From positions 1-35,476 of the forward strand of contig CAIQBQ010000108.1 of the NCBI GenBank assembly GCA_903870105.1: a stretch of DNA of 35,476 nt, given 5' to 3'. Position numbers and translations under genes: made by a program. This document shows positions 4,532 to 35,476 of this stretch, one piece after another (the stretch's first letter is position 1; every line of letters begins with the position of its first letter). The notes below the pieces were generated by a model. It was not told where the DNA came from, did no database searches, and saw only the letters and a program-made list of their open reading frames with translations. Origin of the DNA: an uncultured Alphaproteobacteria bacterium (GTDB lineage: Bacteria > Pseudomonadota > Alphaproteobacteria > Rickettsiales > UBA1997).

Positions 4532-5134
4532 ATGAAAATTTTCAAAATTCGCTACATTCTTCTTTTGGCATTGCTTACATCTTGTGTTGAAACCGTAGTT
4601 ATTGGTTCAATTGGAGGTGGAGTTTTAGCGTCGCGCGAGAAAACCATGCAAGACACACGCAGCGACGTCATGATTGCTGTGACGCTTAGTGCAGACTTCA
4701 TTAGTCATGGTTTAAAAATGCCAGGAAACTCAGTAAATTTTACTGTTAATGAAGGCAGAGTATTGCTTACCGGCATCGTTCGCGATCCACAAAAAGCTAA
4801 AATCGCACAAGATATTTCTTGGATGGTAATGGGTGTGAAAGAAGTAATTGACGAGATTCAGCCGCATGAAGAGGGAATGTTTTTTAAAGACTTTTCTTCC
4901 GCTTTTCGTGATTACTTAATCAGTGCCAAAGTAGAGTCGAAGCTACTAATGACGCGCGATGTGATCTGGCCAAATTATAAAATTACCACAGTGGGAAGTA
5001 CGGTTTATTTGCTTGGCGTAGCGGTTAATGATTTTGAAATGCAACGAGTGCTGACAATTGTTTCTAAGGTTTACGGTGTTGAGAAAGTTGTTAATCACGT
5101 GCTATTAAGAGATGATCAAAGAAGACGCGGATAA
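4532..5134 (+). CDS. dual BON-domain lipoprotein (DolP/YraP/OsmY family)
   Basis: Lipobox LLTSC. EGRVLLTG, GVKEVIDEI, VYLLG and GVEKVVN are BON motifs. Confidence 0.9.
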   Translation: MKIFKIRYILLLALLTSCVETVVIGSIGGGVLASREKTMQDTRSDVMIAVTLSADFISHGLKMPGNSVNFTVNEGRVLLTGIVRDPQKAKIAQDISWMVMGVKEVIDEIQPHEEGMFFKDFSSAFRDYLISAKVESKLLMTRDVIWPNYKITTVGSTVYLLGVAVNDFEMQRVLTIVSKVYGVEKVVNHVLLRDDQRRRG

Positions 5135-6494
5135 CAAAATTATTACTTTCGGTTGTCGCTTAAATTCTTACGAATCTGAAGCAATCAAAGAAGCTCTAAA
5201 AAAAACTGATCAGAAAAATCTTTTAGTTTTTAATTCTTGCGCAGTAACCGCAGAAGCTGAGCGCGAGCTTCGTTCTGCCGTGCGTCGTGCTAAGCGCGAC
5301 AATCCTGATGTTAGAATTGTTGTAACTGGTTGTGCCGCCCAAATAGATCCAGAAAAATACGCGAAAATGGCAGAAGTGGATTTGGTTTTGGGTAATGCAG
5401 AAAAGTCGAATTCAGAAAGCTATAATTTCTCCAACACCCTTCCGCCGGTTGAGCGCAGTCGAAACCAAGGACGAAGTCACGATTCCGACATCGCCCACAA
5501 AGATCAAATTTTCTTCGCCGCAAAAAAATCTGCACAAATTTTTCTAACCCCCAACGAGACCTCTAAAATCAAGGTCAATGACATCATGTCCGTGCGCGAC
5601 ACAGCTCCGCAACTTGTCTCTTATTTTGAAAATAGAACCCGCGCTTTCCTCGAAATTCAGAATGGTTGTAATCACCGCTGCACTTTTTGCGTAATACCGT
5701 TTGGCCGTGGAAATAGCCGCTCAGTGGCATTTGGTGAAATAGTTTCGCAAGTAAAAAAAATGGTCGCCGCAGGTCACCAGGAAGTAGTTTTTACCGGCGT
5801 AGATATTTCTGGTTACGGCGAAGATTTGGCAGTGCCGATTACTTTATCGAGCATGATTAAGCGTTTGCTCAAGCTGGTTCCTGAGCTTCCACGTTTGCGA
5901 CTTTCTTCAATCGATGTCGCTGAAATTGACGACAAAAATACTGGGGAATTTTTTGAAATTTTGCGCGATGAACCGCGTTTTATGCCTTATTTGCATCTCA
6001 GTGTTCAGTCGGGAGATGACGTGATTTTGAAGCGAATGAAGCGTCGTCATAATCGCCAACAAGTTTTAGATTTTTGTGCTAAGGCGCGCCAAATCAGGCC
6101 AGAAATCACTTTTGGCGCTGACATCATTGCTGGTTTTCCAACTGAAACCGACGAGATGTTTCAAAATTCTGTGCGCTTAATTGAAGAAGCTGGAATTATT
6201 TTTACTCATATTTTTCCTTATTCAAAACGCGATGGAACCCCAGCTGCCAAGATGCCGCAGGTTAATGGAAAAATAATTAAAGAGCGCGGGAAAATTTTGC
6301 GCGAGACCGGAGTGCGTGAATTACAGAAATTTTTAGCCAAGCAAATTGGCAAAAATTTAAGTGTAATTTTAGAGAAAGATGGATTCGGAAAATCAGAAAA
6401 TTTTCTCGACGTAAAAATCTCACGCGGAAAATCTGGAGAGATCGTTAGAGTCAAAGCTGAAGGGGTCGAAGAGAATTATTTGATTGGAGAATAA
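5112..6494 (+). CDS. mtaB: tRNA t6A methylthiotransferase (radical SAM) with internal insertion
   Basis: TFGCRLNSYES, NSCAVT, QNGCNHRCTFC (CxxxCxxC), RLRLSS, HLSVQSG and ADIIAGFPTET. Confidence 0.93.
   Translation: MIKEDADNKIITFGCRLNSYESEAIKEALKKTDQKNLLVFNSCAVTAEAERELRSAVRRAKRDNPDVRIVVTGCAAQIDPEKYAKMAEVDLVLGNAEKSNSESYNFSNTLPPVERSRNQGRSHDSDIAHKDQIFFAAKKSAQIFLTPNETSKIKVNDIMSVRDTAPQLVSYFENRTRAFLEIQNGCNHRCTFCVIPFGRGNSRSVAFGEIVSQVKKMVAAGHQEVVFTGVDISGYGEDLAVPITLSSMIKRLLKLVPELPRLRLSSIDVAEIDDKNTGEFFEILRDEPRFMPYLHLSVQSGDDVILKRMKRRHNRQQVLDFCAKARQIRPEITFGADIIAGFPTETDEMFQNSVRLIEEAGIIFTHIFPYSKRDGTPAAKMPQVNGKIIKERGKILRETGVRELQKFLAKQIGKNLSVILEKDGFGKSENFLDVKISRGKSGEIVRVKAEGVEENYLIGE
5437..5500. repeat. intragenic copy of the right-end palindromic element, in frame within mtaB
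   Basis: 5442-5470 matches the left arm at 34986-35014 at 27/29 nt. 5481-5498 matches the right-arm core at 13/18 nt. Confidence 0.88.
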
Positions 6495-7897: not shown

Positions 7898-9177
7898 AAT
7901 TTCTGAGTTACAAAAAGCAAAAAAAGCAAGATTCCCTTTTCATCGAAGATGTTACCATCTCAGATATTTCTAATACTGTCGGCACTCCATTTTATTGCTA
8001 TTCACGAAAGAATTTAGTGGAAAATTTTCGGAATTTTTCTGATGCATTCATGCGGGCAGGAATTTCTCAAGAAGGAAGTTTTGGTTATAAAATTTGCTAC
8101 GCGATCAAGGCCAATTTTAACATTCATCTCGTAAAGATTTTAGCCGAGCTAGGATCTGGAATTGACGCGGTTTCAGCTGGGGAGGTTTTTCGCGCAATCA
8201 GAGCGGGGGTTAGTCCGAAAAAAATTGTTTTCGCCGGAGTTGGCAAAACGCGCGAAGAAATTTCTTACGCTTTGAAAAATGGTGTTGAGGAATTTTCGGT
8301 TGAGTCTGTGCCGGAAATGTTTTTGTTAAGTGAGGTGGCTGTAAGCTTGAAGAAAAAGGCAAAATTTTCTCTGCGTGTTAATCCGAATGTTGACGCCGGA
8401 ACTCATGACAAAATTTCTACGGGCAGAAAGGGTGACAAATTTGGCGTGGATATTGAGTTGGCGGAAGAGGTTTATGCGAAAGCGGCAAAGCTGCCAGGTC
8501 TTGAGATTCATGGTATAGCAATGCATATTGGTTCGCAGATCACCACAATTGAGCCATTCACTGCTGCTTTCAAAAAATTGCGCGAATTGTGTTTAACGCT
8601 GCGCAAAAATGGTCACAAAATTTCCGCTCTCGATTTCGGCGGCGGCATCGGAATTCTCTATAAAAATGAGACTACACTTTTGATTCAAGATTACGTAGAT
8701 CTGATCAAAGAAATCACCACAGACCTAAAAGTTAAAATCACTATCGCGCCAGGCAGGGCTCTGGTTGGCAGCGCAGGAATTCTAGTAAGTAAAATTATTT
8801 TCCTTAAAGAGACTTCGGTAAAAAATTTTGCGATTATTGACGCGGCGATGAATGATTTAATGCGTCCGGGGCTTTACGGTTCTTACCACGAAATTCTTCC
8901 GGTGATTAAAAAATCTGGCACGAAATCTAATTACGATTTGGCCGGTCCGATTTGCGAAACGACAGATGTGCTCGCACAAAATCGTGAATTAATTGACCCA
9001 AGATCGGACGACTTATTAGCTTTCATTAGTGCTGGCGCTTACGGCTCATCAATGTCTAACGAGTATAACTGTCGCCCGCTTATCCCAGAAGTTTTGGTGG
9101 ATGGAAATAGTTTTAAGGTGATTCGTCGTCGTCCAAGTTTTGAAGAAATGTTACATTTAGAGGTGGAAGATGAGTAA
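7894..9177 (+). CDS. lysA: diaminopimelate decarboxylase
   Basis: YAIKAN (PLP Lys), HIGSQ, DFGGG, GPICETTD and GAYGSSMS. Confidence 0.96.
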   Translation: MKFLSYKKQKKQDSLFIEDVTISDISNTVGTPFYCYSRKNLVENFRNFSDAFMRAGISQEGSFGYKICYAIKANFNIHLVKILAELGSGIDAVSAGEVFRAIRAGVSPKKIVFAGVGKTREEISYALKNGVEEFSVESVPEMFLLSEVAVSLKKKAKFSLRVNPNVDAGTHDKISTGRKGDKFGVDIELAEEVYAKAAKLPGLEIHGIAMHIGSQITTIEPFTAAFKKLRELCLTLRKNGHKISALDFGGGIGILYKNETTLLIQDYVDLIKEITTDLKVKITIAPGRALVGSAGILVSKIIFLKETSVKNFAIIDAAMNDLMRPGLYGSYHEILPVIKKSGTKSNYDLAGPICETTDVLAQNRELIDPRSDDLLAFISAGAYGSSMSNEYNCRPLIPEVLVDGNSFKVIRRRPSFEEMLHLEVEDE

Positions 9178-34453: not shown

Positions 34454-34996
34454 ATGAGTATTACATTAGATAAACAGCAGGCGGTAAAAGAGAATATCGA
34501 ACAAGCAATTTGGAGCGTGTTTGAAAATCAAAATTATGCAGCTTCGACAACTTTAATAGGATCAGCTTCTTCAGTGCTAAAAGATTTATTGAGCGATGGA
34601 TCTTTTAGAAAAACTACAAGCAATCTTTTTCCTGAAATTAGCGAGAGGAAAATCTATGAAGAGTTGGATAAAATCTGGAATTTCTGTAAACACGCCAAGA
34701 AAAAAAGTGAGAAGAAAATCTTGCTAGAGGAAGAAGATACTTTGATTTCGATCCTTTTGGTAATCAGGGATTATCGAACGCTATATGCCAATACAACCTT
34801 ACTTATGGGGTCTTATGAACTGTGGTTTTGCGCTAAGAATCAGAGTTTTTTTGAATGCTTCCCAGATGAGAAAAGAGTCGTAATAGTTCAAGAGTTTGGT
34901 GAATTGTATAAGGAAGAACTACTGTCTGTTCAGATTAAAAAAGGATGGATGGTTATAAAAAAGCATATTGAGAAGCGATCCCTTCCCGCTGGTTGA
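34454..34996 (+). CDS. hypothetical protein (possibly HEPN-like); stop codon lies inside the repeat
   Basis: 180-aa ORF with a WNFCKHA motif. The TGA at 34994-34996 is inside the repeat's left arm. Confidence 0.65.
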   Translation: MSITLDKQQAVKENIEQAIWSVFENQNYAASTTLIGSASSVLKDLLSDGSFRKTTSNLFPEISERKIYEELDKIWNFCKHAKKKSEKKILLEEEDTLISILLVIRDYRTLYANTTLLMGSYELWFCAKNQSFFECFPDEKRVVIVQEFGELYKEELLSVQIKKGWMVIKKHIEKRSLPAG

Positions 34997-35100
34997 GCGA
35001 AGTCGAAACCAAGGGGAGGGCCTCGGGGGTTTCTTATCCTTGGTTTCGACTTCGCTCAACCAGCGGATAAGAAAGAAAACCGGCGGATAAGAAAGTTAAG
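34976..35100. repeat. palindromic repeat unit 1 (REPIN-like)
   Basis: Perfect 29-bp inverted arms at 34986-35014 and 35038-35066 with a 23-nt spacer. Confidence 0.95.
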
Positions 35101-35140
35101 CAGTGGATAAGAAAGTTTCGCTACGGATAAGAAATTTTAA
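35061..35140 (+). repeat. 4 x 20-bp tandem repeat with GGATAAGAAA core
   Basis: cagcGGATAAGAAAgaaaac / cggcGGATAAGAAAgttaag / cagtGGATAAGAAAgtttcg / ctacGGATAAGAAAttttaa. Confidence 0.92.
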
Positions 35141-35235
35141 TATCGCAGCTAGATACAAATTTACCAACTAACCCAAGCTATTGCAGGAACCCCGTCTTGA
35201 ATTAATCCAGCGACAATTACACTAATTACAAAACT

Positions 35236-35360
35236 CGATCCCTTCCCGCTGGTTGAGCGGAGTCGAAACCAAGGGGAGGGCCTCGGGGGTTTCTTATCCT
35301 TGGTTTCGACTTCGCTCAACCAGCGGATAAGAAAGACAACCAGCGGATAAGAAAGTTAAG
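35236..35360. repeat. palindromic repeat unit 2
   Basis: Direct copy of 34976-35100 at +260 bp, with 3 mismatches in 125 bp. Confidence 0.95.
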
Positions 35361-35373
35361 TCACAGAGCTCGA

Positions 35374-35410
35374 CTTGGTTTCGACTTCGCTCAACCGGCG
35401 GATAAGAAAG
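35374..35410. repeat. lone right arm of the palindromic repeat
   Basis: CTTGGTTTCGACTTCGCTCAACCGGCGGATAAGAAAG. Confidence 0.92.
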
Positions 35411-35441
35411 TAAACATCACACCAATCAAACCCACACTCAC

Positions 35442-35476
35442 ATGCCACACATGTATATTCTCGAATGTGCAGACAA
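35442..35476 (+). CDS. probable small GIY-YIG nuclease (UPF0213/YhbQ-like), 5' fragment only
   Basis: Translates as MPHMYILECAD, matching the (V/M)YILxCxD..YxG start typical of standalone GIY-YIG proteins. Only 11 codons are visible. Confidence 0.65.
   Translation, partial: MPHMYILECAD

Follow-up and report, generated by a model that had tools for sequence, protein, structure and literature searches.

Rickettsia palindromic elements (RPEs), as portrayed in the passages of PMC10969869 that deal with them, are palindromic repeats lying in frame in unrelated genes, each family in one reading frame. The sections of Di Nocera et al. (2013; PMC3733652) on repetitive extragenic palindromes (REPs) state that the CGTC type predominates in Alphaproteobacteria, has no dedicated transposase and includes RPE-4 and RPE-6, that the unit of this type comprises 20–40 bp with an 8–9-bp stem starting AT, a 4–5-nucleotide (nt) loop, a CCA tail and a terminal CGTC (or TGTC/CCTC) tag, and that intragenic REP dimers encode 20–30 amino acids (aa), many of them in repair genes. 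Here we describe an RPE-like or REP-dimer-like repeat in a new lineage, termed the VERSRN family, one arm of which is read in frame in the interdomain linker of MtaB, a tRNA (t6A37) methylthiotransferase (MTTase), encoded on a 35,476-nt stretch (contig CAIQBQ010000108.1; the whole stretch is hereafter called the window) of an uncultured bacterium of the Rickettsiales (GTDB lineage UBA1997). With a probability of roughly 0.85, we take this arm to be one half of a dispersed hairpin repeat, which replaced part of a permissive linker in the single phase used by the family and is now a tolerated passenger, the family itself spreading without a REP-associated tyrosine transposase (RAYT).

The likeness to RPEs that had been proposed in an earlier note on this DNA holds at the level of function. 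Both are dispersed, hairpin-forming palindromes of small alphaproteobacterial genomes, both occupy several unrelated housekeeping genes in one frame, adding peptide at tolerant sites, and neither has a known transposase as far as the cited passages on RPEs go. The likeness is one of behaviour: RPEs live in Rickettsia and are quoted at about 150 bp, whereas VERSRN elements, which have variable loops, belong to an uncultured Rickettsiales genus and measure 60–117 nt in the genome of the window (G000) and 100–124 nt in a second genome of the genus (G042). New with respect to RPEs is that at least four lineages have the same linker filled, that other palindrome families also use this linker, and that copies decay to halves. 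Peptide-writing selfish palindromes are hereby extended beyond Rickettsia, into a freshwater genus without cultured members, of which 44 species have been sequenced.

In structure, the nearest counterparts of the VERSRN family are the REP dimers described by Di Nocera et al., where, in the sections cited, short palindromes likewise often pair head to head and the dimers can fold into a single large hairpin. As many of the intragenic REP dimers lie in repair genes, so one VERSRN copy lies in a helicase gene (locus L094). The VERSRN arm does not conform to the REP unit, as a single 29-nt arm folds at best into a 4-bp stem (−5.2 kcal/mol). Its outer tag varies, being CGTC in G042 and a third genome, G050, and CGCT or CGCC in the G000 copies. 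The GTAG REP/RAYT system differs in its associated RAYT gene, none of which scored above cut-off in G000. Miniature inverted-repeat transposable elements of bacteria (MITEs; Correia/NEMIS, ERIC, RUP and SPRITE), in the part of PMC10969869 devoted to them, are likewise small, non-autonomous and folded as RNA, have inverted-repeat ends, and lie at gene ends or, sometimes, in in-frame fusion with host open reading frames (ORFs). The VERSRN family differs from MITEs in showing no target-site duplication in 20 G042 copies or at a filled and empty site pair, its flanks often being a complementary A-run and T-run rather than direct repeats. The palindromic GC clusters of yeast mitochondria are mobile and occur in frame in VAR1; they resemble the VERSRN family as short palindromes tolerated in frame in a coding region, and are organellar, GC-rich and unrelated in sequence. 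A non-exhaustive search of the full-text literature on RPEs, in-frame insertion and coding palindromes returned no description of the element or the genus. The family works like an RPE or a REP dimer; membership in a described family is not claimed.

The repeat arm in mtaB and its family

The features on which the analysis rests are as follows (G007 is another genome of the genus).

5112..6494, plus strand: mtaB, tRNA (t6A37) methylthiotransferase; intact 460-aa ORF, identified by TIGR01579 and Pfam domains
5394..5567, plus strand: interdomain linker, about aa 95–152, longer in the genus; from orthologue alignment
5441..5471, plus strand: solo left arm, in-frame reading (P)PVERSRNQG; 27/29 identity to 34986–35014 over 5442–5470
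5472..5480, plus strand: three codons RSH between the arm and the native box, without counterpart in the G007 element or native linkers
5481..5504, plus strand: native DSDIAHKD box, whose first 18 bases had been taken for a degenerate right arm
34986..35066, strand not applicable: complete intergenic copy; 29-nt arms 100% complementary, 23-nt loop; from repeat search
35246..35402, strand not applicable: second complete copy (35246–35326) and solo right arm (35374–35402); from repeat search and blastn of the window end

The host gene was assigned by its TIGR01579 score of 425 bits (cut-off 357) and by the domains UPF0004 (aa 10–94) and Radical_SAM (aa 181–357), with the CxxxCxxC motif in place (NGCNHRCTFCVIP). 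Across the genus, conservation is confined to the second half of the linker, HKDxIFFxxKKSxxxFL; the half before it, which begins after ESY, is hypervariable and ranges from 63 to 180 nt in 40 species. Of the six orthologues that an alignment of 30 included from other families of the order, five had no extension and one, G038, a shorter one; against the nearest solved structure, MiaB 7mjv, query residues 95–152 aligned to chain residues 118–139 only. This hypervariability, the absence from those five orthologues and the short MiaB linker together suggest that the linker is probably unstructured and exposed at the surface.

The arm sits between UPF0004 and Radical_SAM with the frame intact, the translation around it reading ...NFSNTLPPVERSRNQGRSHDSDIAHKDQIFF... 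and ...ESYNFSNTLPPVERSRNQGRSHDSDIAHKDQIFF...; the placement in the linker reported in the earlier note is hence borne out by the intact ORF and the domain coordinates, and its count of 27/29 was reproduced. The repeat search grouped 5437–5470 with 34981–35014 and 35241–35274 as copies of one sequence. The stretch 5441–5471 is 94% complementary to the right arms 35037–35067 and 35297–35327, and 94–97% complementary overall when the arm at 35374–35402 is included.

The right arm that had been assigned to 5481–5498 on the basis of 13/18 identities requires revision: the count is correct, but the bases belong to the native DSDIAHKD box. This box is unchanged at the protein level in G023, G019, G056 and G047, genomes with 0–1 arm copies, and in G050 it stands directly behind a genuine right arm (...GFNEAQPAG-V-DSDIAHKD). 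Because 5481–5498 is the native box, found in G050 behind a true right arm, the right arm of the mtaB copy is missing and has not decayed in place as had been supposed. Having lost it, the region no longer folds: the best structure of 5430–5510 (−11.5 kcal/mol, z +0.26) is no better than that of shuffled sequences, in contrast to the −66.1 kcal/mol (z −9.5) of the intergenic copy at 34980–35072.

Dispersed copies of the arm are abundant in G000 (1.43 Mb in 160 contigs; assembly 97% complete). With a 24-mer of the arm and up to three mismatches, six matches were obtained in the window, where 100 shuffles gave an expectation of 0.00, and 60 (29 + 31) in the whole genome, the reversed control giving none; in a short-word blastn search, the copies merged to 39 places. 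The earlier note had made its interpretation dependent on the existence of such copies. They are typically near-perfect hairpins with arms of 24–29 nt and loops of 12–45 nt that differ between copies, the elements being 60–117 nt long across these places. In the window, repeats that join the arm end to ATAAGAAAG come after both the second complete copy and the solo right arm. A scan of the whole window at Rfam gathering thresholds returned no family over 5437–5500 or 34976–35415, the only matches being the RNase P RNA and four tRNAs.

Since many G000 contigs terminate within the repeat and the assembly is fragmented, one might suspect an assembly artefact of a repeat-rich bin, or else a motif native to MtaB of which gene fragments have been dispersed. 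We give next to no credence to either. The same arm, with substitutions of its own, is present in mtaB in four independently assembled genomes of the G000 clade (G010, G021, G055 and G007), the dispersed copies are perfect hairpins without any other mtaB sequence, and 31 of 40 orthologues are without the motif. In practical terms, assemblies break at such repeats, and in the annotation of metagenome-assembled genomes (MAGs) the repeats give rise to small ORFs that are spurious and to 'variant' proteins that are too large.

Besides mtaB, three further long ORFs of G000, named by Pfam, carry the family in frame. In a two-domain ABC ATPase (contig C103), a complete element, LVERSRNQGKVPAADLGFDSAQP, separates the two ABC domains; a transketolase (C116:3–1289) has two tandem arms between its N and Pyr domains; and an acetyl-CoA synthetase (C152) has a solo arm. 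In alignments of the top 30 loci per gene, the ATPase insert was present in 6/30 orthologues and the transketolase arms in 5/30 (two copies each, one in G007), while the acetyl-CoA synthetase arm was found in G000, G055, G005 and G017, with other repeat families at the same site in G001 and G045. About 60 native residues are missing from the transketolase at the position of the arms, and are kept in 23 of the 30 orthologues; this segment, KEWEEKF...FKQKI..EKPK, is absent in the G000 clade, G001 and G005, where it is partly replaced by arms or short sequences. VERSRN or VERSQN also occurs in frame in a DEAD-box helicase domain (L094, on a contig titled 'Proteobacteria bacterium') and in a restriction-modification-like protein of a Fluviicola MAG (L130). 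The earlier note had held that the family creates new protein sequence and had suggested a search for VERSRN-like peptides: the former is seen in four G000 genes, and the VERSRN reading recurs, besides mtaB, in the ATPase, the transketolase and the synthetase.

Every in-gene left arm, namely in mtaB (4 lineages), the ABC ATPase, transketolase, acetyl-CoA synthetase (2–3 lineages), L094 and L130, is read in the VERSRN phase. The other open phase, LSEVETK, was seen in none of them, and the third contains TGA.

mtaB linkers across the genus

MtaB was found in 41 of the 44 genomes of the genus at E ≤ 1e-100, and 40 linkers were readable; that of G059 is cut by a contig end, and G005, G051 and G052 gave no MtaB match. 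The family arm is present in nine of the 40 readable linkers. G000, G010, G021 and G055 have the solo left arm; G007, whose MtaB is 96% identical to that of the window, has the whole hairpin at the same position, its 29-nt arms enclosing a 15-nt loop and its reading being LVERSRNQGRQDPALGFDYAQPAG. Together with G007, the complete elements of G042 and G050 make three complete hairpins. G017 has the left arm only, and its sister G048 has the right arm only (AGFDSAQL), followed by a different repeat. One essential-looking enzyme hence offers a natural series of hairpin-free linkers, complete hairpins, and left-only and right-only halves, in which the arrival, trimming and tolerance of such inserts can be followed and which marks the junction of the MTTase N and radical-SAM domains as open to free expansion.

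Twelve species have a hairpin-free linker of 72–75 nt (24–25 codons; fold z −1.2 to +1.4), most being variations of ENFSN..(Q/E)KITNSDSDIA. The hairpin-free form is read as ancestral because it is similar in sequence on both main branches of the genus (G056, G041, G020, G047, G014, G043, G054, G019 and G023). In all carriers, the element replaces the middle of this native linker; in G000, about 10 codons are replaced, and the flanks NFSN and DSDIAHKD are native.

The left half in G017 and the right half in G048 argue for a complete element in their common ancestor, followed by loss of one half in each. The half copies of the G000 group have probably also broken down from a complete copy. In the account that we favour, a complete hairpin would once have stood in the mtaB linker in place of about 10 codons of the native 24–25, and the loop and right arm would then have been lost, which would have removed a hairpin of about −60 kcal/mol from both mRNA and DNA. 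The remaining peptide, PVERSRNQG, would be a tolerated passenger and not a functional module.

Were the element instead exapted, the arm or PVERSRNQG would serve MtaB or its expression as a spacer of defined length, a protein contact or an mRNA signal. Such a role may be thought to follow from the retention of PVERSRNQ in all five G000-clade genomes and in G017, whose MtaB is only 79% identical, and from the use of the same hydrophilic frame in every in-gene copy; the constant frame, however, is equally explained by selection against stop-containing and less tolerable frames. In addition, the linker varies in length over the whole range given above and is unrelated in content in 31/40 species, while the rest of MtaB is 71–98% identical to that of the window. 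The variable position of the arm, GAGCG(A/C/G)AG, differs among carriers just as it does in the intergenic copies, and half-copies of either arm exist. Accommodation of a passenger thus appears far the better description, and exaptation very unlikely.

The linker is shared with other palindromes. Twelve of the 40 linkers fold at z ≤ −3, perfect inverted repeats of 8 bp or longer occur in 13, and about 22, as judged by eye, contain repeat-derived sequence, nine of them from the VERSRN family. CGTC-tagged palindromes occupy the linker in G008, G015, G053, G004, G009, G044 and G048, palindromes of heptamer runs in G011, G057 and G012, and further palindromes in G049, G022, G045 and G003. The genomes rich in a CGTC-type 12-mer are those that bear this type in mtaB (154 dispersed copies in G015, 130 in G009, 77 in G048, 53 in G008, 26 in G004, 25 in G053 and 17 in G044; controls 0–2). 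In the heptamer type (loci L040, L283 and L046), the arms are tandem (AAGTCGT)n or (AAGTGGT)n opposite their complements, and are read ...KSKVVSRKS...LTTYDLRLTT, an in-frame hairpin of a kind differing from the REP-like ones.

A comparable exchange of families was seen between genes at two intergenic sites (2047–2112 and 8796–8870 of locus L317, from G000 contig C43, compared with G001 contig C34). One orthologous site holds a VERSRN-type hairpin in G000, G010 and G007 and a CGTC-type dimer in G001; the other is empty in G001, where the two genes nearly abut, and is filled in G000, G010 and G007 by an insert of about 125 nt with the element. A short way upstream of the RNase P RNA gene (944–1346), the window itself contains, at 807–897, a head-to-head dimer of a CGTC/TGTC-tagged REP, made up of TGTCATTCCCGCGAAGGCGGGAATCCAG and an inverted partner that is 82% complementary to it.

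Copy number and the number of arrivals

Arms were counted in each genome of the genus with a 20-mer and up to two mismatches (controls 0–1). The counts were 81 in G007, 71 in G000, 61 in G042, 57 in G021, 50 in G010, 49 in G055, 44 in G017, 33 in G048, 20 in G003, 18 in G050 and 10 in G001, the remaining 33 genomes having three or fewer. The arm is present in the mtaB linker of 9/10 genomes with at least 18 arms, as against 0/29 readable linkers from genomes with three or fewer; orthologues that carry the same linker in genomes lacking the family, named in the earlier note as counter-evidence, were accordingly not encountered. The one exception among the rich genomes, G003, has another palindrome in its linker. 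This link between copy number and linker occupancy makes the target choice of transposase-less REP/RPE-type repeats directly testable.

As related genomes are not independent, lineages were counted instead of genomes. In a four-gene FastTree (MtaB, transketolase, acetyl-CoA synthetase and ABC ATPase; 2159 columns and 35 genomes, those with under 45% of the columns filled having been dropped), the carriers are spread over four positions. One is that of the G000 clade, which comes out with G001 and G005 (support 0.993–1.0); G042 nests with G006/G024 (0.98) and with G014/G043/G044 (1.0), of which G014 and G043 have the native linker; G017 pairs with G048 (0.998); and G050 takes the fourth, at a support of 0.46. 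On a quick IQ-TREE of MtaB only, the trait needs four changes, and the well-supported branches force at least two.

From these sequence comparisons, three or four separate arrivals in the mtaB linker are favoured, because a lineage whose linker has been replaced would regain the native form only by recombination. The family would then land repeatedly in the same few permissive sites, the mtaB linker among them, with other palindromic families using the linker elsewhere.

A lesser though appreciable chance attaches to a different history, in which a single ancient insertion early in the genus was inherited vertically, held similar to the other copies of its genome through gene conversion, and deleted or replaced in most lineages, or in which a filled allele was moved by homologous recombination. 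Precise positions are in keeping with it: the (DS)DIAHKD box comes right after the end of the element in every carrier, and the distance from ESY to the start of the element is exactly 7 codons in both G000 and G017. Furthermore, G000, G007 and the distant G042 all have the spacer between ppdK and a GIY-YIG gene filled, in the same syntenic position and with the subtype of their own genome, a pattern that fits old copies homogenised within each genome; and G044, G004 and G009 share similar CGTC-type linker alleles though they are not close relatives. On the other side, the hairpin-free linker of 24–25 codons, alike on both main branches, looks ancestral, so that its regain would need recombination, and the closest group to G042 (support 1.0) includes G014 and G043 with the native linker. 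Repeated arrival is hence the history that we retain.

Mobility and spread of the family

The suggestion of the earlier note that the family is or was mobile is supported by copy numbers of 0–81 per genome, by the empty intergenic site in G001, by the homogeneous set of 61 arms in G042, and by insertions in other genes that vary between species. The G042 set was analysed through 20 copies, palindromes of about 100 nt (100–124 nt when extended) whose arms are 96.3% complementary (847/880 positions). One arm position takes all four bases, and its partner is complementary in 17/20 copies. Such complementarity implies that the hairpin is maintained, either by selection or by the copying process. 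The outer end is CGTC in 17/20 copies, as well as in the mtaB copies of G042 and G050, and about half of the flanks extend the stem, often as an A-run opposite a T-run, like a two-way terminator.

The family would appear to spread within genomes by a RAYT-independent route. A search of G000 with the RAYT family PF01797 gave one match of 21.1 bits, below the cut-off of 23 bits and within a 1610-aa frame, in an assembly that is 97% complete; positive controls scored in 6/14 genomes. Likewise, no pair of arms was seen to surround a transposase-sized ORF in G000 or G042, the pairs examined being less than about 120 nt apart or from separate elements.

Several observations weigh against the history proposed above for the mtaB arm and its family. 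No mobilising enzyme was found, and target-site duplications were seen neither around the 20 G042 copies nor in the comparison of the filled site with the empty site of G001. The trees rest on one to four genes, and the placement of G050 has a support of only 0.46. Because the carrier alleles are replacements, recombination of alleles between species could mimic repeated insertion. In the G000 clade, the direction may be the reverse of that proposed, with G007 completed by gene conversion, since the bases following the arm differ between G000 and G007. A match of 13/18 to the right arm, as the native box shows, is rarer than chance in the window, where besides true repeat copies only 6 other of 70,918 positions reach 13/18 or better, and the box might preserve a trace of a much older copy. 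Finally, the examination of MtaB orthologues for an empty site, as advised in the earlier note, succeeded only in part: hairpin-free linkers were found in about 12 species, but the nearest relative, G001 (88% identical), has no exact empty site, its linker being a different 27-codon sequence, SLQQQSSSFDSVRLRGFHESSSKDDTA, of unexplained origin.

At the right end of the window, the intergenic copies belong to a cluster next to a GIY-YIG gene.

34976..35476: cluster downstream of a pyruvate phosphate dikinase-like ORF (ppdK), with two complete elements, a solo right arm, and tandem arm end plus ATAAGAAAG

Last in the cluster is a small GIY-YIG nuclease gene, of which the window, ending within it, includes the opening codons (from 35442 or 35451). 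G007 and the distant G042 have the same order of ppdK, element and GIY-YIG, and a second copy of the element–GIY-YIG part lies on G000 contig C127. Inverted copies of a CGTC-type palindrome (GTCATCCCCGCGCAGGCGGGGATCC) stand on either side of a second small GIY-YIG gene of G000 (C30:890–1250; L272). The arrangement resembles a large hairpin element with a gene in its loop, and could represent an autonomous form of these repeats. In a MAG of the Moraxellaceae (L086), the end of a GIY-YIG gene abuts repeats.

The small GIY-YIG protein was considered as the mobiliser and set aside, except as a lead, for the number of such genes does not follow the number of arms across five genomes: G017 has 44 arms and no small GIY-YIG gene, and G056 has one arm and two such genes. 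One subfamily does lie beside elements, at the syntenic locus of G000, G007 and G042. The one GIY-YIG match in G017 forms the C-terminal part of an open frame of 1008 aa (210 aa of it read), and an element follows its stop codon. Literature searches on GIY-YIG in combination with palindromic repeats returned organelle papers only.

An unlikely, rather speculative extension of these findings is that the repeats home to sites already holding a hairpin and overwrite them. The mtaB linker, the ppdK–GIY-YIG spacer and some intergenic sites would then be landing pads refilled by whichever family is active, the shared 14-nt core TGAGCGNAGTCGAA would be the recognition site of a conserved mobilising protein, for which the small GIY-YIG nucleases would be candidates, and translation in mtaB would be a by-product. 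It is consistent with this proposal that the family residing at the three kinds of site varies with the species, that copy number tracks occupancy of the mtaB linker for two families, and that a GIY-YIG gene is bracketed by inverted CGTC REPs. The mismatch of arm and gene numbers in G017 and G056 speaks against it.

Outside the genus, the arm pattern was found in none of 16 other families of the order, one genome being searched for each. Among the matches listed, the exact 22-mer of the arm occurs singly in MAGs of other phyla (L067–L138), assigned to Microcoleus and other Oscillatoriales/Cyanobacteria, Moraxellaceae, Comamonadaceae, Bacteroidota (Saprospiraceae, Fluviicola and Bacteroidales) and Treponema. 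There it usually adjoins related hairpin motifs such as CCCTTCGACTNCGCTCAGGG, with which it shares the core TGAGCGNAGTCGAA. Further contigs with the exact arm bear the title 'MAG: Rickettsiales bacterium' or, in several records among L061–L126, 'MAG: Rhizobium sp. Q54'; the latter title is probably an error of taxonomic labelling, as the sequence matches the small, low-GC Rickettsiales-like genus.

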